Origin: a virus
Taxonomy: Duplodnaviria; Heunggongvirae; Uroviricota; Caudoviricetes
Length of the DNA stretch: 15,574 nucleotides
IMG/VR virus record: IMGVR_UViG_2802429244_000016
Strand: one strand, 5' to 3'
A program made the position numbers and the translations under genes. Shown piece by piece: positions 1,370 to 15,574 of this stretch; within the stretch, counting starts at the first letter, position 1, and each line of letters begins with the position of its first letter. The notes beneath the pieces were generated by a model, which saw nothing but the letters and a program-made list of their open reading frames with translations, was not told where the DNA came from and did no database searches.

Positions 1370-1445
1370 GCCGATATAGCTCAGTTGGTAGAGCAGCGCA
1401 TTCGTAATGCGAAGGTCGTAGGTTCGACTCCTATTATCGGCACCA
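1370..1445 (+). tRNA. thrW: tRNA-Thr, anticodon CGU (thrW-type), including 3' CCA
   Basis: GCCGATATAGCTCAGTTGGTAGAGCAGCGCATTCGTAATGCGAAGGTCGTAGGTTCGACTCCTATTATCGGCACCA: 7-bp acceptor stem, D-loop AGCTCAGTTGGTAGAGC, anticodon loop TTCGTAA, T-arm GGTTCGACTCC. The proA-thrW order matches the known E. coli island insertion hotspot. Confidence 0.95.
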
Positions 1446-1461
1446 TTCAAACATCTCCCCA

Positions 1462-2898: not shown

Positions 2899-3214
2899 TA
2901 TTTAACAGTTAGCCATGGAGAAGGGCAATCGCTCTTTTAACAACGAAGATGGAATCTTCTACGCAGCTGAAAAGCTGGATGCTCTTTAACAGCCTTTGGT
3001 GCTTTCCTGATGCAGGAAAGAATAGGGATACATGCACCTTTACAATGCATGTAATGATTCATCCATGAGGCTGCGGAGCGCTGACAAAGCGCAATTGCTC
3101 TTTAACATTGATGTGGGCGGGATGGTTCGTCCCGCAGTGACCGATAGATTTCTATCGGGAAACATACAATGATTCAAATATGAATCTACGGCGCTGACAA
3201 AGCGCAATTGCTCT
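2899..3214 (+). repeat. Repeat-rich int-alpA intergenic region: exact 24-bp direct repeat GCGCTGACAAAGCGCAATTGCTCT twice, plus 3-4 copies of a CTCTTTAACA-like motif
   Basis: Identical 24-mers at 3078-3101 and 3191-3214, each with an internal hairpin GCGCT-GACAA-AGCGC. CTCTTTAACA-like copies at 2931-2942, 2981-2991 and 3098-3107. Hairpin GCGGGATGGTTCGTCCCGC near 3117-3135. Confidence 0.55.
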
Positions 3215-3476
3215 CTTGCCTGCCCACCATGCCCTGAAAAAGGGCGTTCTTTAAAACTACTGGATGTCACGCCTAATAGCGTGATCCTGCCGAAATGCAG
3301 GGTAGCTCTACCCTTGTGGAGCAAACAAACCAAAACAATCTGACTATCTTTTATAAAAGACCGCAATATGTTTTTCATATTGTGGTCTTTGGCGTATTCG
3401 ACATTTGACGCAAATAAAACTCTCGCCATTCGTTGCAGGAGGGGGTTATTGCGTCATTAGTACAGGATATTAATAA

Positions 3477-3680
3477 ATGGCTAATTACAATTCATTAATT
3501 CGTCTCTCTGAAGTTCAAAGGCGAACTGGTTATAGCAAAGCATGGATTTATCGTCTTATTAGTCAGGGGAGGTTCCCTAAACAGGTAAAAATTGGAAGTC
3601 GGGCTATTGCTTTTGTTGAGTCTGAAATAGATGAATGGATTGAGAAGTGTATATTAGAATCTAGAGACGAGGTGGCCTGA
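3477..3680 (+). CDS. alpA: AlpA-family phage/satellite transcriptional regulator (excisionase-like winged-helix DNA binding)
   Basis: 67-aa protein MANYNSLIRLSEVQRRTGYSKAWIYRLISQGRFPKQVKIGSRAIAFVESEIDEWIE, the classic AlpA motif pattern; positioned just downstream of the P4-type integrase. Confidence 0.85.
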   Translation: MANYNSLIRLSEVQRRTGYSKAWIYRLISQGRFPKQVKIGSRAIAFVESEIDEWIEKCILESRDEVA

Positions 3681-4123: not shown

Positions 4124-4957
4124 ATGAACATCGAAAAAAGCAGATTAATTTCTGAGGCCGCCCCTCATCTGAACGCCTCTCTGGGCACAATTAACGGTAA
4201 TGAATTTGCCGCAATTGTCCCGGTTATTCCTGGTCATATCGGTGGGCGTGAAACCAATATTGTTAGCGCAAAAGCGTTGCACAAAGCGTTGGGCGTGGGA
4301 AAAGACTTCTCTACATGGATCACTGATCGCATCTCTGAATATGACTTCACCATTGGGCACGATTACTCAGTCCATAAAACTATTTCCCCAAATTTGGGGA
4401 AAAGCCCGAATGGCGCGGCTTACAGCAAGATTAAGCAGTCTGGCAGACCCGGCAAAGACTATCTGTTAAGTGTCGGAATGGCGAAAGAACTGGCAATGAT
4501 CGAACGCAATGATCAGGGTCGCGCTATCCGCCGTTATTTCATCCAGTGCGAGGAAGAATTACAGCGTAGCGTGCCTGAAATCGCCGCCCGCTATCGTCGC
4601 CAGCTAAAAGCCCGTATCAGTGCCGCAAACAACTTTAAGCCAATGTGCGATGCGCTGAATATGGCCCGTGCCGAGATGGGGAAAACGACGCAGCAACACC
4701 ACTACACAAACGAGAGCAATATGATTTCTCGTATCGTTCTTGGTGGGCTAACTGCTAAGCAGTGGGCGCGGATAAATGGCTATTCTGGCGAACCTCGCGA
4801 CCATATGAACGCAGAACAGCTTGAGCACCTCTCATATCTCGAAAGCACCAATATCACGTTAATTGATATGGGCATGGAATATGAGCAGCGCAAAGGAGAA
4901 CTCACCCGCCTGTCGCAACGCTGGCTCGCCAAGCGTCTGGAGGCGCTCAATGTCTAA
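4124..4957 (+). CDS. Phage antirepressor-like protein with AntA-type N-terminal domain
   Basis: 277 aa; GGAG upstream of the ATG. Segment SAKALHKALGVGKDFSTWITDRISEYDFTIGHDYSV resembles the AntA/AntB motif (W-I-x-x-R-I-x-x-Y-x-F-x-x-G-x-D-Y), recalled from memory. Confidence 0.55.
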   Translation: MNIEKSRLISEAAPHLNASLGTINGNEFAAIVPVIPGHIGGRETNIVSAKALHKALGVGKDFSTWITDRISEYDFTIGHDYSVHKTISPNLGKSPNGAAYSKIKQSGRPGKDYLLSVGMAKELAMIERNDQGRAIRRYFIQCEEELQRSVPEIAARYRRQLKARISAANNFKPMCDALNMARAEMGKTTQQHHYTNESNMISRIVLGGLTAKQWARINGYSGEPRDHMNAEQLEHLSYLESTNITLIDMGMEYEQRKGELTRLSQRWLAKRLEALNV

Positions 4958-5132
4958 GCCAACAGGAATACCACAACCTCAAAAACGCTACAAAGATGCC
5001 CACGGAGCACTCGTTACTGTCGAAAGCGTGTCTCACAACCGAGTGACGTTTTATCGCGACGGGTATCAATCGCCATGCGTACAACCGCTGGCGCGCTTCA
5101 TGAAGGAGTTCGCGGAGGTTAACAAATGCTAA
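4950..5132 (+). CDS. Small hypothetical protein (60 aa; DUF4222-like by recollection)
   Basis: ATG at 4950 preceded by GGAGG (4939-4943) and overlapping the upstream stop; MSKPTGIPQPQKRYKDAHGALVTVESVSHNRVTFYRDGYQSPCVQPLARFMKEFAEVNKC. The ORF track's 4863 start lacks an RBS. Confidence 0.55.
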   Translation: MSKPTGIPQPQKRYKDAHGALVTVESVSHNRVTFYRDGYQSPCVQPLARFMKEFAEVNKC

Positions 5133-5563
5133 CCGCCCAGAAGAAGACATTTTCACTGGCTGGCATGTCGCCAAAATCCAGCAATATGACAGCAAAGTCA
5201 GGCATTAATACAGCAGATACAAGCAAAGTTTATCATTTGCTGGTGGTAGGAGCGGATGCCTTAACTATGTCAGAAATCACGGTCGATGGTGTTAGCGTTG
5301 AGAAGGTCAGCGGCTGCGCCAGAGAATTTCTGGTCGTAGATCACCTGTTCTGCTCGTGTAGTGACTCCACAAAAACATTCGTCCACGCGCGTGACGTTAA
5401 CGAAATGAGCGCGATGTACTGTGCTTCTGGTTCTTCCAATAGTGAGTTTTCGGAGTCCATAAAAAAGAGCTTGCCGTTATGCGGCAACACGGTTTATGGT
5501 TATAAGGCACCTCATAAAACGGGTGCCGGGTTTCGCAGCCCGGAAATGTACGAGGCGACACAT

Positions 5564-5584
5564 GACGCGCCGAGCGTCTTTTTT
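5564..5584 (+). terminator. Candidate intrinsic terminator (short GC stem plus T6)
   Basis: GACGC-GCCGA-GCGTC followed by TTTTTT (5579-5584). Stem is only 5 bp, so this is weak. Confidence 0.35.
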
Positions 5585-5594
5585 TGTGCCGTTA

Positions 5595-5632
5595 GCCAGA
5601 CTCACACTTTTTTCAGTGATGTGGTTATAATC
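5595..5632 (+). promoter_or_regulatory. Candidate sigma70 promoter for the small-ORF/primase operon (perfect -10 TATAAT at 5625-5630)
   Basis: GTGATGTGGTTATAATCCGCG; no convincing -35 hexamer (CACACT-like at about 5602-5607). Lies downstream of the candidate terminator and upstream of the structured leader. Confidence 0.35.
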
Positions 5633-5639
5633 CGCGTCG

Positions 5640-5788
5640 CTTGCAAAATTATGGTGGGCTGGACAGGGCAGCCGAAAGGCTGGCCGGTTTCCTTGTACGC
5701 CGGTACTGCGAACTCTGTTCAGTCCACCACCAGCGAGTTTCGCAGCTCCGGTGGTGGGAAGAATTCCCAGTACAAGGAGGCTGCCACA
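5640..5788 (+). ncRNA. Structured 5' leader / candidate regulatory RNA upstream of the primase operon (possible P4 CI-RNA-like immunity element)
   Basis: GNRA hairpin CAGCC-GAAA-GGCTG (5668-5681); 8-bp stem CCACCACC (5723-5730) / GGTGGTGG (5749-5756) presenting loop TTTCGCAG; single-stranded CTGCGAA (5706-5712) complementary to that loop; an upstream hairpin CCGGG-TTTCGCAG-CCCGG (5526-5543) presents the same loop sequence. Confidence 0.4.
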
Positions 5789-5982
5789 TGCTGGCTACTA
5801 CCCCTACCCAAAAACCGCAATTTATCTGGATTATCGCCGCAGTTCGCCGCGATTGCCAGACAATTACCGCCAAAATTCATCATATTGCTGCCGAGTCTGA
5901 ACGCGATGCTCGCCGTTCTCTGGTGCGCGATCACGTCTGCTTTTTTGCTGGTCGTATCCGCATGGAGGTGGCACATGATTAA
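5789..5982 (+). CDS. Hypothetical small protein (64 aa), first gene of the coupled operon
   Basis: Strong RBS AGGAGG (5775-5780) 8 nt before the ATG at 5789; MLATTPTQKPQFIWIIAAVRRDCQTITAKIHHIAAESERDARRSLVRDHVCFFAGRIRMEVAHD. Confidence 0.55.
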
Positions 5983-6193
5983 AACCTACGATGTGCATAT
6001 GGATCCCCTCGAACGCACAAGCCAGATCATCACACTGACAGAGGTGATTAATGACATTCTGGTGAGCAACTCTCCCTCACGAGACGAAAAACTGAAGGCG
6101 TTACTCGCGATATTGGATCTCGCCGTTCGTGACGTTCATTTCCTGCTGGAAGGTGGACAAATGCCATGCAAAACGGGGGCAACCAATGAATAA
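5975..6193 (+). CDS. Hypothetical small protein (72 aa)
   Basis: ATG at 5975 preceded by GGAGG (5964-5968) and overlapping the upstream stop; MIKTYDVHMDPLERTSQIITLTEVINDILVS... The ORF track shows this frame open from 5126, but the upstream part lacks a start context. Confidence 0.5.
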   Translation: MIKTYDVHMDPLERTSQIITLTEVINDILVSNSPSRDEKLKALLAILDLAVRDVHFLLEGGQMPCKTGATNE

Positions 6194-7805: not shown

Positions 7806-8169
7806 AAATGCAGAAATGGCGCTTAGCTCCGCAATCGGAGAGCAGGTGGCAAAGATTGCTGGTGCTGTGTGGATTCATAACCTTCATTCTACTGGTGAAG
7901 AGAAAATGGCAATTCAGACGCCAGAGGGACGCACCATTACTACATCTCTGAAGCCGTCAGATATTTGTGATCTGATTTGCACATTCATGTACCCAGCAAT
8001 GAGGACTGTCCACGGCGATAAGTGGAAACTTGCGACAACCGCTGAATTTGATATGTGGCTAAACAATGATGGCATGCTGACTGATTACGGAATAACCAAG
8101 TGGCAGATGCTGGTTAGCCATATCGCAAACGCTATAGACCACGTGGGGTACGGTGATGCGAAACATTGA
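7798..8169 (+). CDS. Hypothetical protein (123 aa)
   Basis: RBS GGAGG (7788-7792) then ATG at 7798, overlapping the upstream stop; MRENAEMALSSAIGEQVAKIAGAVWIHNLHSTGEEK... Confidence 0.6.
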   Translation: MRENAEMALSSAIGEQVAKIAGAVWIHNLHSTGEEKMAIQTPEGRTITTSLKPSDICDLICTFMYPAMRTVHGDKWKLATTAEFDMWLNNDGMLTDYGITKWQMLVSHIANAIDHVGYGDAKH

Positions 8170-10912
8170 TCTTATCCGTCAGGTTATCAGTGCGTCTGAA
8201 AACAACTGGCCTCATGTGCTGGGCTGCCTGAACATAAATGTCCCTGACTCTCCGCGCCGTCATGCTCCCTGCCCTGCATGTGGGGGCAAAGATCGATTCC
8301 GGTTCGATGACAACGGGCGCGGTAGCTTCATCTGTAATCAGTGCGGCGCTGGTGATGGGCTGGATTTAATTAAACGCGTAAATAACTGCGACACAACAGA
8401 GGCGGCGCTTCTTGCCGCTGATGTTCTGGGTATTGATTACCGGACAACGGAAACACCAGAAGCCACCAGCCAGAAACGGGAACAACAGGAAACCGAGCGC
8501 CAGCGACGCGAACAGGAGCGCCTGAAAAGGGCAGAGAAGGACGAACAACAAAGACGGGATACGTTTTCCCGTCAGTTTGATGACATGCGCAGAAAGGCTG
8601 TAAACGGCAAATCTGATTATCTGGTTGCGAAAGGGGTAGGTGATTTTACATTCCCCGTGTTGCCCGATGGATCTCTGTTGCTGGCGCTGGTGGATAAATC
8701 CGGCGCAGTAACAGCAGCACAGACTATTACCTCACATGGTGAAAAAAGACTCCTGACAGGTTCAGCAAAGCGAGGGGCATATCACGCCATAAACGCACCA
8801 GAAACAACACAGAGCATCTTAATCGCAGAAGGGCTGGCAACGGCATTATCTGCCCATTTAATTCGTCCAGAGGCGCTGACAGTGGCGGCGATTGATGCCG
8901 GGAACCTGTTATATGTCGCCCAGGTACTGCGGGATAAATTTCCTTCAGCACAAATCATCATTGCTGCGGATAACGACCACAGCGAAGGAAGACAAAACAC
9001 GGGGAGAATAGCAGCAGAAAAGGCAGCTTTATCTGTTTCTGGATGGGTGGCATTACCCCCGACAGATCACAAAGCAGACTGGAATGATTACCACCAAAAA
9101 CACGGCATTAAATGCGCCACAGAAGCGTTCAATAAGTCAATGTACCAACCACAGGGTAATGGCGTGAAACAGGAGCCACAGACCATTGAGGGAAGCGATT
9201 TTAAGGTTATGGATACCGACCCACTGAAACCAAGAATAGAAAGCCGCGAGGATGGTATTTATTGGGTATCTCCGAGAGCTGACAGCCAGAGTGGAGAAAT
9301 CATCAATAACGAAAGCTGGTTATGTTCTCCGTTAAGCGTTATCGGTACTGGCAGAGACGATAAAGACCAGTATCTCATTCTTCGCTGGCTGTCGTTTGGT
9401 TCTGAAACGCCGACAACCGCTGCCATTCCACTGGCTGATATTGGTGAACGTGAAGGATGGCGCACACTTAAAGCTGGTGGGGTAAATGTCACGACCAAAA
9501 GCAGCCTCAGAGCAATACTGGCAGACTGGCTACAACGCAGTGGCTCTCGTGAATTGTGGCGTGTTGCTCATGCCACTGGCTGGCAATGCGGAGCGTACAT
9601 CATGCCTGATGGGGAAATCATCGGAACACCTGAAAATCCTGTGCTGTTCAGCGGGAGAAGCTCAGCCGCAGCCGGATATACCGTCTCAGGGAGCGCGAAA
9701 AGCTGGCGTGATAACGTGGCGCGTCTGGCCTTTGGTAACTATTCAATGATGACCGGGATCGGCGCAGCACTGGCAGCGCCATTGATTGGGCTGGTGGGCG
9801 CTGACGGGTTCGGCATTCATTTCTATGAGCAGTCGAGCGCAGGTAAGACCACCACGGCAAACGTGGCGAGCAGCTTATACGGCAACCCTGATTTACTGCG
9901 GCTGACGTGGTACGGAACCGCGCTGGGGCTGGCAAATGAAGCCGCCGCCCACAATGACGGACTAATGCCGCTTGATGAAGTTGGTCAGGGCGCTGATCCT
10001 GTCAGTGTTTCACAGTCTGCCTATGCGTTATTTAACGGTGTAGGGAAACTGCAAGGTGCTAAAGATGGTGGAAACCGGGATCTAAAACGCTGGCGTACAG
10101 TGGCAATCAGCACCGGAGAAATGGATTTAGAAACATTTATCGCTACTTCCGGGCGAAAAACCAAAGCCGGGCAACTGGTGCGACTGCTGAATATTCCGTT
10201 GAGTAAAGCAGTACGCTTTCACGATTACCAGAACGGAAAACAGCACGCAGACGCACTGAAAGACGCTTACCAGCATCACCACGGCGCAGCCGGGCGTGAG
10301 TGGATTAAATGGCTGGCAGACCACCAGCAACAGGCTATTAAAACTGTTCGTGACTGCGAAAGCAGATGGAGAAGCCTGATTCCATCCGATTATGGTGAGC
10401 AGGTTCACCGTGTAGCCGCGCGATTTGCCATTCTGGAGGCCGCATTGCTGTTAGGCGAGGTTGTAACAGGCTGGGATGCTCAGACATGCCGTGATGCGAT
10501 ACAGCACAGCTATAACGCATGGTTGCGCGAGTTCGGCACAGGTAACAAAGAACATCAGCAGATTATTGAACAAACGGAGGCATTTCTTAATGCCTATGGG
10601 CTTAGCCGTTTTGCACCATTTCCATACAGCCCGGCAGATTTGCCAATCAAAGATTTAGCCGGATACCGTCAGCGTGGAGAACATGACGAAAGCCCAATGA
10701 TTTTCTACACATTCCCGGCCACATTTGAAAAGGAGATCGCATGTGGTTTCAACGCAAAACAGTTTGCTGAAGTGTTGAAAAAAGCCGGGATGCTAACCCC
10801 ACCAAACAGCGGTCGTGGATACCAAAGAAAATCACCACGTATTCAGGGACGACAAATAAACGTTTATGTACTCAATTACCAGCCAGGAGATTACAACTCA
10901 TCTGAAGAATGA
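8153..10912 (+). CDS. Bifunctional DNA primase/helicase, P4 alpha-like (zinc-ribbon + TOPRIM primase N-terminus, P-loop NTPase C-terminus); functionally the pri-rep of a satellite
   Basis: 919 aa. Cys4 zinc ribbon CPACGGKDRFRFDDNGRGSFICNQCG; TOPRIM-like IAEGLATALS and IIIAADNDHSEGRQNTG; Walker A FYEQSSAGKTT. Start is GTG 8153 or ATG 8156, overlapping the upstream gene. Confidence 0.9.
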   Translation: MMRNIDLIRQVISASENNWPHVLGCLNINVPDSPRRHAPCPACGGKDRFRFDDNGRGSFICNQCGAGDGLDLIKRVNNCDTTEAALLAADVLGIDYRTTETPEATSQKREQQETERQRREQERLKRAEKDEQQRRDTFSRQFDDMRRKAVNGKSDYLVAKGVGDFTFPVLPDGSLLLALVDKSGAVTAAQTITSHGEKRLLTGSAKRGAYHAINAPETTQSILIAEGLATALSAHLIRPEALTVAAIDAGNLLYVAQVLRDKFPSAQIIIAADNDHSEGRQNTGRIAAEKAALSVSGWVALPPTDHKADWNDYHQKHGIKCATEAFNKSMYQPQGNGVKQEPQTIEGSDFKVMDTDPLKPRIESREDGIYWVSPRADSQSGEIINNESWLCSPLSVIGTGRDDKDQYLILRWLSFGSETPTTAAIPLADIGEREGWRTLKAGGVNVTTKSSLRAILADWLQRSGSRELWRVAHATGWQCGAYIMPDGEIIGTPENPVLFSGRSSAAAGYTVSGSAKSWRDNVARLAFGNYSMMTGIGAALAAPLIGLVGADGFGIHFYEQSSAGKTTTANVASSLYGNPDLLRLTWYGTALGLANEAAAHNDGLMPLDEVGQGADPVSVSQSAYALFNGVGKLQGAKDGGNRDLKRWRTVAISTGEMDLETFIATSGRKTKAGQLVRLLNIPLSKAVRFHDYQNGKQHADALKDAYQHHHGAAGREWIKWLADHQQQAIKTVRDCESRWRSLIPSDYGEQVHRVAARFAILEAALLLGEVVTGWDAQTCRDAIQHSYNAWLREFGTGNKEHQQIIEQTEAFLNAYGLSRFAPFPYSPADLPIKDLAGYRQRGEHDESPMIFYTFPATFEKEIACGFNAKQFAEVLKKAGMLTPPNSGRGYQRKSPRIQGRQINVYVLNYQPGDYNSSEE

Positions 10913-10938
10913 GCTTCTTCATGTGCGTAGAAAAGGTG

Positions 10939-11048
10939 TTGGTTCAGTTGGTTCAGTTGGCTCAATTTGTAAAGAGTATTGTTTTATAAGGATTTTATTC
11001 TTTTTGTTGAACCAACACTGAACCAACAACACGGTATTTTGAACCAAC
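10939..11048 (+). repeat. Iteron cluster A (ori-like): 3 tandem GTTGGTTCA, AT-rich spacer, 3 inverted TGAACCAAC
   Basis: GTTGGTTCA at 10939-10947 and 10948-10956, GTTGGCTCA at 10957-10965; AT-rich spacer; TGAACCAAC at 11008-11016, 11019-11027 and 11040-11048. Immediately 3' of the primase gene. Confidence 0.7.
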
Positions 11049-11098
11049 ACAATGTGACTGAATTGATGCGCACAACACCTGGCTGGCATCAGAGAGTG

Positions 11099-11493: not shown

Positions 11494-11673
11494 ATGGCTA
11501 TTTCAGTAAAGCCAGTATTGATAAGTGAGAAGCAAATGGAAGCGATAAAGAAAATTCAGGAAGAGCAGCGTAAAAAATCAGAGGTAGGAGTTGCGCCAAC
11601 GATCCATGAAATTGCTCGGGGATTAATGGATAAGGCGCTGACAATACACGCAAAAATGAAGGTGTCTGCATGA
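11494..11673 (+). CDS. Small hypothetical protein (59 aa), translationally coupled to the 604-aa gene
   Basis: Not in the supplied ORF track (below its length cut-off). RBS AAGGGGG (11482-11488) then ATG at 11494; TATAAT at 11455-11460 upstream; stop TGA overlaps the next ATG (ATGA). MAISVKPVLISEKQMEAIKKIQEEQRKKSEVGVAPTIHEIARGLMDKALTIHAKMKVSA. Confidence 0.5.
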   Translation: MAISVKPVLISEKQMEAIKKIQEEQRKKSEVGVAPTIHEIARGLMDKALTIHAKMKVSA

Positions 11674-13484
11674 TTATCAATGAGTTGGCCTACAAGGTCA
11701 CAATTAAGGCCGATGAATTCCTGAATGGAAAACGGAAAGTAAAAGATGAAGTTAGTAAATTAAACAAAGATCTTTCCAGGGCTGAGAAGGAAAGGTTAAA
11801 GGAACTTGAAAAACAACGGCAGGAAATGGAGAAGTTCAGTAAAAACGCTGTTTCAGCTTTCCGCAACGTGACAACAGCAGCCGCTGGATTTTTGGGAATC
11901 GGCGCTGGGTTGTATGGAATCAAGCAACTTTTTACATCTACCGTCAACGAAATCGTGAGAGCCAGTCAACAGGCCAAGTTTTTCGGTTCTGATGTTAATA
12001 AGATGTTTGGTGTTCAGCGGGGATTTCGTCAGGCTGGTCTTAACGGTGACTCGTTCATTTCATCTTCTGGGAATGCCAGAATGGCTTTGGCAAATATTGC
12101 CGATCCAACTGTTATGGGAGGGCTTACTGGCGCTGCCCAAAATTTGCTGGTTCTTGGCGCTCGCACCGGATTAGATATCAATAAGCTCGGTGACCCAAAC
12201 AAGGCTCTTGCTGAGTTTTCTCGCTATGGCAAGACTCATTCTCAAGAAAACCTGATGCAGGTGATGGCTGCCGCAGGGTTCGATCCGACAGATGCCGCTA
12301 AAATAAAATCAGGGGAACTTAAGCAGCTTGTCGATTCAGAAACAAAGAAATCCCGTATTACCGCACAGCAGGTAAAAGAGCAGGAGAAGGTTGCCGCCAC
12401 TCTTGGTCAACTTGATTCAGAGTTTTCCCGATTAAAGCAAAATTTAGCCATGGCATTTGCTCCTGACGTTATTGACGGAATGAAGGCTTTTGGTTCCTGG
12501 ATTGAGAAACATCATGGCGACATCATTGGCTTTTTCAATGACGCCGGAAATATGACGAAGCAATTCACAAAGGCAGTTGGTGGTGCGGAAGAGGCTCTGA
12601 AACTATTGGCAGCAGCATATGTAGGAAGCAAACTTACAGGCGGCGCCCTTCCTCCATGGTTGGCTGGGTTAATAGCATATGGTTTGTATCTCTACAATGA
12701 CAGGGAAAACATTGAGGGTGCAGCTAAAGGATCGTTTGATTACTCTAAGCGTGAACTTGGAGATACCATGCGCAGCATGGGGTTTGACACCGATTTTGGG
12801 CGTAGGGGAGATGAGATTTATGGCAATAACATTCAGCCAGATATCCCTCTCCCTGACGGAGTAAAGCCAGTAAGCATGGATTCTCTCCTTGACGCCATTC
12901 GTGAGGTGGAATCGAGTGGTGGTAAAAAACTTTATAGCCCGAAAGGTGCTGTTGGTCCGTATCAGTTCATGAAGGATACTGCCATAGCGTACGGGTTAAA
13001 GGTCGGGGATGGGATTGATGAGCGCCTTGATGAGGTGAAATCTCGCGCTGCTGCTGAAAGGTTCATGAGGGATTTGCTAAAGCACTATAAAGGCAATGTT
13101 AACCATGCGCTGATGGCTTACAACTGGGGGATGGGCAATGTAGATAAAAAGTTAAAATACATATCCAGTACCGGGTTTGATTCACCATCATCCAAATACT
13201 GGAACACCTTACCGAAAGAGACGCGAGAATATGTGCCAAAGATTCGCGCAGCTCTTAATGCAAAAGAAAACGAGACGCTGGCTTACTATCAGCAGCAGCA
13301 ACGCATCGCCTCAACACCAAGCCAGACAACATCAAAAATTGACAACAGCCGTAGCAGCAGTACAACTATTGGCACGGTTGTTGTTAACAGTAACCCGACA
13401 ACAGTTGATGCTCTTACCAGAAGTGTCAATCAGCAAGTTAGCCGGGTGTCAACAAACGCGGCATTTTCTAGTGCCGTTAAGTAG
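11670..13484 (+). CDS. Coiled-coil, membrane-associated protein with C-terminal lytic transglycosylase (SLT/lysozyme-like) domain and Q/S/T-rich tail; tape-measure or injection-protein-like architecture
   Basis: 604 aa. N-terminal K/E-rich coiled coil (about aa 20-60); hydrophobic segments AAAGFLGIGAGLYGI and ALPPWLAGLIAYGLYLY; SLT signature about aa 404-490 (nt about 12879-13140): DAIREVESSGG, GAVGPYQFM, ALMAYNWGMGN. Tail YYQQQQRIASTPSQTTSKIDNSRSSSTT. Confidence 0.8.
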   Translation: MIINELAYKVTIKADEFLNGKRKVKDEVSKLNKDLSRAEKERLKELEKQRQEMEKFSKNAVSAFRNVTTAAAGFLGIGAGLYGIKQLFTSTVNEIVRASQQAKFFGSDVNKMFGVQRGFRQAGLNGDSFISSSGNARMALANIADPTVMGGLTGAAQNLLVLGARTGLDINKLGDPNKALAEFSRYGKTHSQENLMQVMAAAGFDPTDAAKIKSGELKQLVDSETKKSRITAQQVKEQEKVAATLGQLDSEFSRLKQNLAMAFAPDVIDGMKAFGSWIEKHHGDIIGFFNDAGNMTKQFTKAVGGAEEALKLLAAAYVGSKLTGGALPPWLAGLIAYGLYLYNDRENIEGAAKGSFDYSKRELGDTMRSMGFDTDFGRRGDEIYGNNIQPDIPLPDGVKPVSMDSLLDAIREVESSGGKKLYSPKGAVGPYQFMKDTAIAYGLKVGDGIDERLDEVKSRAAAERFMRDLLKHYKGNVNHALMAYNWGMGNVDKKLKYISSTGFDSPSSKYWNTLPKETREYVPKIRAALNAKENETLAYYQQQQRIASTPSQTTSKIDNSRSSSTTIGTVVVNSNPTTVDALTRSVNQQVSRVSTNAAFSSAVK

Positions 13485-13509: not shown

Positions 13510-14226
13510 TTATTTGGATAATGAGTTAGCCACTCTAATTACCTTAATTAAGAATGCGTATTCTACTGAGCCTTTCCCATAGGCTCTTTCTGCTATATCT
13601 AAAGCTTTAACAAGAGGTATTCCGTGCTGGTCTTGTGTAATATTGGCAACCATAACACCCTGACATGCTAACATTCCGTCAACCCTCAGTATGGAATAGC
13701 TTGTTGAATCTTTTGGAGCCTCTTGAGATAACTGTTCGCAATGATTTTTTATCGTTAAACCATGTATCTTTTTTTGTGATGCATAAAGCTCCAGTGCTGA
13801 AACCTTTTGCTCAGTTGTAGCATTTGATGGAACCGTGGGGTAAATAACCTGATCTGGATGTTGACTGTAATAATACTCGGTTGCCATCTCAGAAGATGTA
13901 TTAATGACATTAATTTGATAGGCTTTCCTGTCATCATTGAAGCCCCAAACAGATTTAACCTTGGCTATTTTCCACTGATTTATTTCTTTTGCATTTTTAG
14001 CAACAACTGCCGTTCTCATGGCGTCTATGCAGGTAAGATTCACATAAGACCTAACATCTGCAGGTGTTTCCCCAATTTTCGCGAGTTCATCCCCTGATTT
14101 CTCAACAACTTGCTCAGCGTATGAAGAACATTTTTCAATAAGATCTAACCCCGTCACATTTTCAGCATTTACCTTCACAGACAGGAAGATGGAGAACATT
14201 ATTACGAGTGCCGTTATTTTTTTCAT
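13510..14226 (-). CDS. Secreted (Sec signal peptide) hypothetical protein, 238 aa, four Cys; convergent with the SLT-domain gene
   Basis: MKKITALVIMFSIFLSVKVNA followed by ENVTG (predicted cleavage after VNA). Mature part has four Cys, consistent with periplasmic disulfides. Visibly AT-rich compared with the rest of the element. No family recognised. Confidence 0.75.
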   Translation of the reverse strand: MKKITALVIMFSIFLSVKVNAENVTGLDLIEKCSSYAEQVVEKSGDELAKIGETPADVRSYVNLTCIDAMRTAVVAKNAKEINQWKIAKVKSVWGFNDDRKAYQINVINTSSEMATEYYYSQHPDQVIYPTVPSNATTEQKVSALELYASQKKIHGLTIKNHCEQLSQEAPKDSTSYSILRVDGMLACQGVMVANITQDQHGIPLVKALDIAERAYGKGSVEYAFLIKVIRVANSLSK

Positions 14227-14583: not shown

Positions 14584-15027
14584 CTATGACTGTAGAACCA
14601 CCATTATTTTCTCAGTGTTACGTCCTTGTCGTTTCCACGCGCTGTAAATGTCTTTATCCCACGCTTTACCAGCTTTTGTTTGATAGCCTGCTTCATTGAG
14701 CCGTTCAGCTATCACACGCCCATTATCAAATCCCTGTTGGATGGTATCGGCAATGATCTTTATAACTGCCGTTTCGTTATATGGCTTTGGTGGGATGTTC
14801 GGCTTTCCGGCAATAAGCGACGCAGCGGCTTTTTCCATGCGCTCCACCAGCCCAAGCATTCGTGAATCAATAGACTTTTCCGGCTGTCCCAGCTTCATGC
14901 GAATCGCATCAACAAGCCAGGAGGTTTTATCCCCTCCAGAAGCGAGAACAGACCGATTAAACTCATCCTGCAATTCAGATGGGATGCGGAACGCGATCAG
15001 ATTAGATTTGCTCATTGCAAAGACCAT
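14584..15027 (-). CDS. Putative DNA-binding regulator: N-terminal ribbon-helix-helix (CopG/Arc/MetJ-like) plus C-terminal recombinase-type HTH-like motif
   Basis: Either MVFAMSKSNLIAFRIPSELQDEFNRSVLASGGDKTSWLVDAIRMKLG or its internal Met: beta strand IAFRIP followed by two helices fits RHH. C-terminal IAERLNEAGYQTKAGKAWDKDIYSAWKRQG resembles the recombinase-type HTH motif. Neither candidate start has a clear RBS. Confidence 0.6.
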   Translation of the reverse strand: MVFAMSKSNLIAFRIPSELQDEFNRSVLASGGDKTSWLVDAIRMKLGQPEKSIDSRMLGLVERMEKAAASLIAGKPNIPPKPYNETAVIKIIADTIQQGFDNGRVIAERLNEAGYQTKAGKAWDKDIYSAWKRQGRNTEKIMVVLQS

Positions 15028-15286: not shown

Positions 15287-15574
15287 ATGATAAGGGACAG
15301 GAAAGCTGAAGAGCTGGAGTCAAAAGGGCTATACCGGAGAGCTGCCGCACGATGGGCAGAAGTCATGATGCTGGCAGATGGCGATAAAGAACGTGAACAT
15401 GCAGCAAACAGACGCTCTGAATGTATCCGTAAGGCGGCACGCCCACCAGCAACTACAGACAGATTCGGAGATTTAAGACAGGCAGTTAAGCGGACTCATT
15501 CGGCTCTTGGTATGGATGAGGAAGCGAGAGGGTACTTCAGGCGTTATCGCGATAAAGATTGCCAGAGACAGTAA
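15287..15574 (+). CDS. PerC-family transcriptional regulator-like protein (95 aa)
   Basis: RBS GAGAGG before the ATG; MIRDRKAEELESKGLYRRAAARWAEVMMLADGDKERE... matches the conserved PerC/Pch N-terminal pattern as I recall it; the stop TAA is the last codon of the window. Confidence 0.65.
   Translation: MIRDRKAEELESKGLYRRAAARWAEVMMLADGDKEREHAANRRSECIRKAARPPATTDRFGDLRQAVKRTHSALGMDEEARGYFRRYRDKDCQRQ

Follow-up and report, generated by a model that had tools for sequence, protein, structure and literature searches.

How does a gene for a protein that resembles the tape measure proteins of phage tails come to lie in a satellite, and what would it do there? The question is raised by a stretch of 15,574 nucleotides of Caudoviricetes DNA (IMG/VR record IMGVR_UViG_2802429244_000016; the whole stretch is called the window below), in which an open reading frame (ORF) with an ATG start at 11670-13484 on the + strand encodes a protein of 604 residues, the target of this analysis. 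The original prediction, made from the letters alone, had described a coiled coil, two hydrophobic segments, an SLT lytic transglycosylase domain and a Q/S/T-rich tail, had likened the protein to tape-measure or ejection proteins although no tail or capsid genes were nearby, and had suggested that a stand-alone, membrane-anchored hydrolase in a satellite could cause premature lysis, help DNA entry or act as a toxin. The ORF is real and as described, with all three of the cited motifs and the Q/S/T-rich tail present, and a Pfam and PHROG scan of the window agrees with a satellite that has no neighbouring tail or capsid genes. The comparisons below place the protein among the tape measure proteins (TMPs) of a lineage of temperate myoviruses and its gene in a phage-inducible chromosomal island (PICI) of the EcCIMP1 type.

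A tape measure protein of Gofduovirus-like myoviruses

PHROG 2013 ('lytic tail protein') matches the target over its full length (E = 6e-190) and the TMP family phrog_9570 matches it with E = 4e-10, which bears out the predicted likeness to tape-measure and ejection proteins. The TMP of a complete myovirus prophage in E. coli TW10590 (WP_126687932.1), which is also 604 residues long, is 98.8% identical in protein, and its gene is 98.3% identical in nucleotides over 11670-13474. The gene order in that prophage is sheath (DUF3383/E217_gp31), tube, a 135-residue chaperone, a 67-residue ORF, TMP and baseplate genes, and the homologs in the Edwardsiella phages GF-2 and Edno5 (genus Gofduovirus; gp18 in both) occupy the same position of the tail cluster. 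These TMPs share with the target the match to PHROG 2013, a helical N-terminal region, an SLT domain and a length of about 600 residues. They differ from it in context: the TMP genes of Gofduovirus-like phages follow the sheath, tube and two chaperone genes and precede the baseplate genes, whereas the window gene follows a PICI primase and a satellite leader ORF and has no tail genes nearby.

Gene context was sampled with 12 look-ups and two collection scans, and the viral-contig set is biased toward prophages. A homolog stands in the tape-measure position at 74 of 74 viral-contig loci, at eight of nine species-representative loci and in three sampled E. coli/Salmonella relatives; because the viral-contig set holds prophage contexts only and the species-representative scan comprises nine loci, neither sample gives a satellite-to-prophage ratio. 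When the viral contigs, the species-representative genomes and the three sampled relatives are combined, all 77 distinct prophage alleles lie directly after the sheath, the tube and the 135- and 67-residue chaperones in complete tail clusters. The presence of a homolog in the tape-measure position across prophage loci identifies the family as the TMP of this phage lineage. The original prediction had held that its reading would fall if the protein were an ordinary part of a complete tail cluster; this is the case for the family (77 of 77 alleles) and is not the case for the window copy, which lies in a PICI. Other features of the TMP class are also present: the protein is long and mainly helical, contains hydrophobic or Gly-rich segments and belongs to a family in which length is constrained while sequence varies. 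Sequence and family context show the target to be a genuine TMP, to represent one allele of the hypervariable TMP that Gofduovirus-like temperate myoviruses of Enterobacterales carry, and to have a predicted role in the virion.

Among tails with sheath, tube and chaperone sequences that are at least 99% identical, the TMP alleles are 35-99% identical with lengths of 591-605 residues, and the divergence within such near-identical tails peaks around residues 350-500. The TMP is by far the most variable tail gene of the phage lineage, which points to diversifying selection on the delivery step. At loci L001, L010, L013 and L071-L078, the sheath, tube and chaperones are 99-100% identical, and the TMPs are 35, 68, 90 or 95-99% identical and 591-623 residues long.

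The SLT domain occupies residues ~402-530 (12873-13259, + strand), with the codon of the catalytic E414 at 12909-12911. Pfam SLT (PF01464) matches residues 402-498 with E = 3.5e-20 and 72.2 bits (cut-off 21.3). The motifs EVESSGG, GPYQFM and AYNWG lie at positions 412, 429 and 483, respectively, and E414, S415, G429, Y431, Q432 and A483-G487 are unchanged in 18 of 18 homologs (63-90% identity to the target). An AlphaFold2 model built on the alignment of the 18 homologs is of low confidence overall (mean predicted local distance difference test score, pLDDT, of 54.5) but contains a confident helical domain at about residues 95-235 and a confident block at 400-530 (pLDDT 70-84). In Foldseek searches the SLT block superposes on MltD (8rhi; root-mean-square deviation of 3.2 Å over 126 columns, 32% identity) and further matches Slt70 (1sly), MltF and T7 gp16 (7eyb), with matches at the sequence level as well. 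The target thus carries a family-1 lytic transglycosylase (GH23) domain, as had been proposed, with peptidoglycan cleavage as its predicted activity; the Pfam match, the invariant E414-S415 pair and the fold matches to MltD, Slt70 and T7 gp16 agree on this, and the SLT fold that the original prediction had asked structure prediction to look for was detected.

Elsewhere in the model, residues 2-369 are nearly all helical according to DSSP, and, as to the putative coiled coil, residues 20-60, 56% of which are charged, fall inside a long helix (2-74) that is modelled at low confidence. A hydropathy scan places a hydrophobic, Gly-rich segment at residues 60-92 (11847-11945, + strand; Kyte-Doolittle 1.19) and a second hydrophobic segment at residues 309-342 (12594-12695, + strand; 1.07). 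The two segments of the original prediction therefore exist; their Kyte-Doolittle values of 1.1-1.2 over 19 residues are below the usual transmembrane threshold of 1.6, so that the membrane anchor it attached to them is not established. No signal peptide was found in the target. The C-terminal tail (residues 538-604, 13281-13481, + strand) was delimited by composition, with Q, S, T and N making up 52% of the last 67 residues compared with 23% of the whole protein.

A conserved and swappable slot in an EcCIMP1-type island

The left end of the window consists of the 3' part of proA followed by the integration target, a tRNA-Thr (CGU) gene (1370-1445, + strand; ARAGORN), with the attL core TCCTATTATC inside the tRNA at 1429-1438. 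This core matches the att reported for EcCIMP1, an E. coli PICI for which induction and transfer by the P22-like podovirus Kapi1 have been demonstrated (Pick, Stadel and Raivio, ISME J 2025, PMC11773190). Adjoining it is a PICI tyrosine integrase (1611-2825, + strand) with P4-type arm-binding, central and catalytic domains (PF13356, PF22022 and PF00589), which is 100% identical in protein to that of the sister islands L004 and L005. The backbone continues on the + strand with an AlpA-family regulator of 67 residues (3477-3680; PF05930 Phage_AlpA on the identical gene in L006-L008, and a weak excisionase-type NCBIfam match), an AntA antirepressor-like gene (4124-4957) and an Ash-family gene (5126-6193; PF08346 and PF10554 on the AntA/Ash pair), a primase with zinc ribbon, Toprim and DUF927 (8153-10912; Pfam, PHROG 1139) and, at the right end of the PICI, a PerC/ANR-family regulator (15287-15574; PF06069 PerC in L006-L008; NCBIfam ANR_neg_reg with E = 5.5e-6, below the cut-off). 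The same island is present in L006-L008, where the attR core lies at window-equivalent position 15917, about 350 bp past the window end, giving an element of about 14.5 kb.

The features that define a PICI of the EcCIMP1 type, namely a tRNA att with an adjoining integrase, direct-repeat cores on either side of an element in the range of 10-20 kb, AlpA and a primase-type replication module, are all present. The integration site, the att core and the backbone (integrase, AlpA, AntA, Ash, primase and PerC) are shared with EcCIMP1, and the backbone DNA is about 97% identical to that of sister EcCIMP1-type islands. From this correspondence with the published element, sequence comparison shows the window island to be an EcCIMP1-type PICI at tRNA-Thr next to proA. 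Pfam, PHROG and NCBIfam searches of the island revealed no genes for capsid, terminase or lysis, and the TMP is its sole virion gene. The exact target protein occurs on six contigs, and the four contexts displayed are all the same PICI; GCA_002965905.1 is one assembly that carries it. A departure from the EcCIMP1 plan comes after the primase: EcCIMP1-type islands, of 20 kb, carry DUF2824 and DNA-transfer genes like gp7, gp20 and gp16 of P22 there, whereas the window island, of about 14.5 kb, carries a myovirus TMP and a secreted protein. The post-primase genes of EcCIMP1 were left as possible packaging genes in its description (PMC11773190).

The slot is led by a conserved satellite ORF of 59 residues (11494-11673, + strand), whose stop overlaps the target start (ATGA) and which has a Shine-Dalgarno-like GAAGGTG at its 3' end. 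It is 92% identical to a 53-residue ORF of islands that have the P22-type cassette and no TMP, is 71-75% identical to ORFs of Citrobacter and Cedecea PICIs, is unrelated to the 67-residue chaperone ORF of the prophages and has no family match in Pfam, PHROGs, NCBIfam or PADLOC. Homology to the prophage is confined to 11670-13474, where it begins at the A of the ATG and breaks off 10 nucleotides short of the stop, and homology to L004 and L005 stops at 11643 and restarts at about 14587. These limits define an island-specific cargo that consists of the TMP and a convergent ORF of 238 residues. Neither the window nor the other TMP-bearing PICIs yielded homologs of the 135- and 67-residue chaperones, and PADLOC matches to the TMP (E ~0.004-0.009) were treated as noise.

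The TMP-bearing PICIs of Citrobacter, Salmonella and Cedecea have a leader ORF with the same C-terminal extension (...H[AS][KE]MKVSA), the Shine-Dalgarno-like GAAGGTG and the ATGA overlap. In all, the leader/TMP junction is conserved in six TMP-bearing PICIs, the TMP alleles of which are 60-96% identical to one another. As the leader ORF, the Shine-Dalgarno-like sequence and the ATGA are kept in PICIs of E. coli, Citrobacter, Salmonella and Cedecea, the arrangement is a conserved module and not an accident, and the target is, as judged from the junction, translationally coupled to the leader ORF. A degraded prophage remnant was considered and ruled out on the same grounds, the arrangement being conserved in four genera with a satellite-specific junction.

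Alternative cargos of the slot were drawn from loci L109-L116. In sister E. coli islands the leader ORF is followed by DUF2824 (gp14-like), P22_gp7, Inj_translocase (gp20) and gp16-like genes, and the best phage match of this P22-type set is Kapi1 (86% nucleotide identity). The same slot holds a gp16 fused to an N-terminal SLT domain in E. coli L110, gp20 with a 943-residue SLT-gp16 in Serratia islands (for example L113), and a TMP of phrog_2276 (E = 2e-199) with an SLT domain, followed by a Dit-like protein, in the Klebsiella island L115; in E. coli L111 it holds proteins of 223, 115 and 116 residues without an assigned role together with PRiA4_ORF3. These comparisons show a conserved and swappable slot with predicted genome-delivery proteins of several kinds. 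The P22 proteins gp7, gp20 and gp16 and T7 gp16 are functional analogues of the TMP in that they are virion proteins, some with an SLT domain, that are expelled as a trans-envelope conduit for DNA; the ejection proteins of podoviruses are packaged in the capsid, whereas a TMP lies in the tail lumen. No similarity between the target and the ejection proteins of T7 or of the P22 type was found beyond the SLT domain. Signs of decay are seen in some sister islands: the gp16-like gene of L005 is truncated, and the primase of L004 is frameshifted. The genes that come after the P22-type cassette were also inspected: the one in L005 (19128-19742, - strand) is weakly SieA-like (phrog_7745, E = 4e-4), and the one in L004 (19230-19625, - strand) has a sub-threshold match to Bax1-I (E = 2e-4), a family of multi-pass membrane proteins.

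The distinct satellite TMP alleles are all intact (six of six) and do not form a clade. The window allele shares 98.8% identity with the prophage allele but no more than 69% with any other satellite allele; for the Citrobacter satellite allele P0023 the values are 93.8% to a Salmonella prophage allele and no more than 85% to other satellite alleles. The nearest-prophage identities are lower bounds. The window and TW10590 TMPs differ at eight residues (26 synonymous and eight non-synonymous codon changes), and M53, K55 and the C-terminal FSSAVK of the window allele are also present in prophage alleles. Alleles can be told apart at residues 53-59 (QEMEKFSK against QETERFGK). A dominant-negative satellite variant of the TMP was ruled out because every distinguishing residue is also a prophage polymorphism. 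The simplest history compatible with these alleles would be that the slot captured a TMP long ago and that its allele has since been exchanged repeatedly with those of resident prophages.

Possible role of the satellite tape measure protein

What all of the slot cargos have in common is that their proteins exit the virion in order to bring DNA through the envelope, and control of that step is therefore probably the selected property; the podovirus ejection sets and the second TMP family in the same slot of sister PICIs argue for the same conclusion. We propose, with confidence that is evenly balanced, that the target is a swappable, helper-matched genome-delivery module of the PICI that is built into helper virions. 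On induction of a helper myovirus, the leader ORF and the TMP would be expressed from the PICI as a single unit. Tails built by the helper would take up the satellite TMP through the helper's own highly conserved chaperones, and the resulting chimeric tails would keep their normal length. When a new cell is infected, the TMP would be expelled, its SLT domain would cut peptidoglycan and its hydrophobic segments would help to form the conduit for DNA entry. What is selected would be control of the genome-delivery step, matched to the helper morphotype. The likeliest benefit, and the least certain step, would be access to cells in which the helper's own allele is excluded or attacked, whether by superinfection exclusion or by defences directed at TMPs and ejection proteins. 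Several precedents bear on such a benefit: changes in gp16 and gp20 overcome SieA exclusion, a P22 hybrid with the ejection-protein genes of HK620 escapes it partially, TMP changes escape exclusion in TP-J34 and HK97, and the SNIPE defence targets TMPs.

A related case is that of the PLE satellites of Vibrio cholerae, the own TMP of which replaces that of a contractile-tailed helper in satellite virions (PMC11838301, preprint 2025). The TMP of the PLEs shares about 20% identity with that of the helper and is 95 residues shorter, which results in shorter tails; PLEs encode a chaperone of their own and, in PLE11 though not in all PLEs, a baseplate hub, and the chimeric tails evade the PLE's own TMP-targeting factor Rta (PMC11838301). 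Both types of satellite encode a TMP, which in the PLE case has been shown to be incorporated into virions. The window allele is near-identical to a phage allele and has the same length of 604 residues, is accompanied by neither a chaperone nor a hub, and occupies a slot that alternates with podovirus ejection proteins. The hallmarks of the PLE case, a divergent TMP of different length and a satellite chaperone, are thus absent from the window.

A wider proposal is that EcCIMP1-type PICIs re-arm helper virions with their own delivery apparatus, that a swap of cassette is a switch of helper morphotype, that an allele which differs from the helper's allows entry into cells, above all helper lysogens, in which the delivery proteins of the helper itself are excluded or attacked, and that the downstream secreted or membrane gene is a matching exclusion factor. 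We advance this only tentatively and consider it more doubtful than probable. EcCIMP1 does not reduce the yield of Kapi1 and adds superinfection immunity (PMC11773190), a combination that argues against poisoning of assembly and leaves room for an exclusion factor in the cargo region.

Several observations weigh against a delivery module. The expression of the satellite TMP and its entry into virions are predictions, and promoter and terminator scans around the slot gave results no better than shuffled controls. The window allele has no satellite-specific residues, so that nothing sets the target apart from the helper's own TMP, and a co-resident helper with the same allele would leave no evasion benefit. 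Myovirus tails assemble apart from heads, and tails that contain the satellite TMP could therefore not be reserved for satellite capsids. The arrangement of PICI and TMP was found in none of 5426 complete E. coli genomes, which makes the TMP variant rare in E. coli, and one EcCIMP1-type island alone has been shown by experiment to be mobilized, in that case by a podovirus (PMC11773190).

The TMP could instead be a passenger that has no protein function in the island and is refreshed by recombination with co-resident prophages, perhaps serving as a patch of homology for cointegrate formation or co-packaging. Identity to the prophage from the ATG to 10 nucleotides before the stop is what would be expected of a conversion tract bounded by the ends of homology, and the lack of satellite-specific changes in the window allele, the lack of recognizable packaging genes and low transduction rate of EcCIMP1 and the decay of some sister islands (the truncated gp16-like gene of L005 and the frameshifted primase of L004) would all fit. 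We nevertheless judge it unlikely, as the leader ORF, the Shine-Dalgarno-like sequence and the ATGA coupling are kept in several genera despite a divergence of up to 40% among the TMP alleles, and all six distinct satellite alleles are intact. The slot also holds complete functional sets (gp14/gp7/gp20/gp16, or TMP with a Dit-like protein) and not random phage fragments, and a role in homology alone would not favour delivery proteins in every variant.

A different kind of explanation is that the TMP or ejection proteins harm phages, either as a decoy for the periplasmic or inner-membrane partners that an incoming phage requires or as a poison of helper tail assembly. EcCIMP1 adds superinfection immunity against its helper without a known defence system, satellites commonly interfere with their helpers (PLE11 targets tail assembly via the TMP), the window TMP is linked to a secreted protein of 238 residues and the P22-type set is trailed by the weakly SieA-like gene. 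Against this, EcCIMP1 leaves Kapi1 titres undiminished on induction, the window allele looks like an ordinary, working TMP and shows no dominant-negative signs, and the neighbouring secreted or membrane genes explain exclusion more simply than the TMP does; interference by the TMP therefore seems distinctly improbable to us. The stand-alone peptidoglycan hydrolase of the original prediction, membrane-anchored and acting as a toxin or in premature lysis, is very improbable indeed. The catalytic SLT domain is intact, hydrophobic segments are present and TMPs have been reported to be intrinsically toxic and hard to express, but the target is an unmodified phage TMP allele with 98.8% identity to a structural TMP of complete prophages, it has no signal peptide, its hydrophobic segments are under the transmembrane threshold, and sister islands hold non-lytic ejection proteins in the same slot.

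Neither the protein family nor the PICI family is new, and TMPs encoded by satellites were described in 2025 from PLEs and from mycobacterial EPIPs (a TMP gene). In the searchable literature we found no report of a TMP in an enterobacterial PICI, of a satellite TMP that is near-identical to phage alleles without a chaperone or a change of length, or of TMPs that alternate with podovirus ejection sets in one conserved slot. SatelliteFinder treats tail-protein profiles as forbidden components in its PICI and cfPICI models (PMC10085698); TMP-bearing PICIs would be rejected under this rule, which may explain why they have been overlooked, and annotation pipelines label the target gene as a generic transglycosylase. 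The usual view is that satellites take over tails and injection machinery in their entirety, with the Vibrio PLEs as the only reported case shown to build their own proteins into helper tails. The slot described here shows that a widespread enterobacterial PICI family keeps a dedicated place for helper-type DNA-delivery proteins, the content of which is swapped between phage morphotypes. It offers a testable explanation for the post-primase genes of EcCIMP1 and bears on the superinfection effect of that island. If satellites do tune delivery, their biology would be linked to the arms race over TMPs and ejection proteins in which SieA, HK97 gp15, SNIPE and Rta take part.

Neighbouring genes and attachment site

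The second gene of the island-specific cargo (13510-14226, - strand) is convergent with the TMP gene, 25 nucleotides from its stop, and encodes a secreted all-α protein of 238 residues with the signal peptide MKKITALVIMFSIFLSVKVNA, ending VNA. A homolog of 63% identity is found at the same place in the Cedecea PICI, and about 16 prophage loci have a homolog of 26-41% identity placed after the TMP in tail-to-tail orientation. Searches of Pfam, PHROGs, NCBIfam and PADLOC gave no match to the protein, the 5426 E. coli genomes and the phage records gave none at the DNA or protein level, and only six close homologs were found among 5.8 billion proteins. Its model (all-α, pLDDT 80.5) has no significant neighbour in the PDB or BFVD. 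That it inhibits the SLT domain, partners the TMP or acts in exclusion is speculation.

Iteron-like repeats are located just 3' of the primase gene at 10936-11050, with two copies of GTTGGTTCA facing three copies of TGAACCAAC (repeat families D2 and D7, inverted repeats I4-I11). Because of their position just after the primase gene, they are probably the origin of replication of the PICI. Beyond the cargo, a backbone ORF of 147 residues (14584-15027, - strand) has counterparts of 94-95% identity in L004 and L005 and of 65% identity in the Cedecea PICI. With respect to the regulator at the right end, a PerC-family regulator is present in EcCIMP1 too, along with a putative repressor for which silencing of virulence genes in Citrobacter rodentium is reported (PMC11773190). 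An ORF of 129 residues without a family match lies between the integrase and alpA (3040-3429, - strand), where the backbone alignment with L005 breaks at 3004-3184; this region may be a variable regulatory spot.

An apparent mimic of the att site inside a baseplate gene of TW10590 was dropped as a candidate, the 51-bp match in question being the attP of phage GF-2. Window positions 1397-1447, which comprise the 3' half of the tRNA-Thr gene and the att core, are 100% identical over 51 bp to this GF-2 attP (L002 22252-22302), which adjoins the GF-2 integrase. The prophage at L070 (16959) has the last 30 nucleotides of the 51-mer together with an integrase that is 79% identical to that of the PICI. 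These two matches suggest that a candidate helper lineage and the satellite can share an attachment site.

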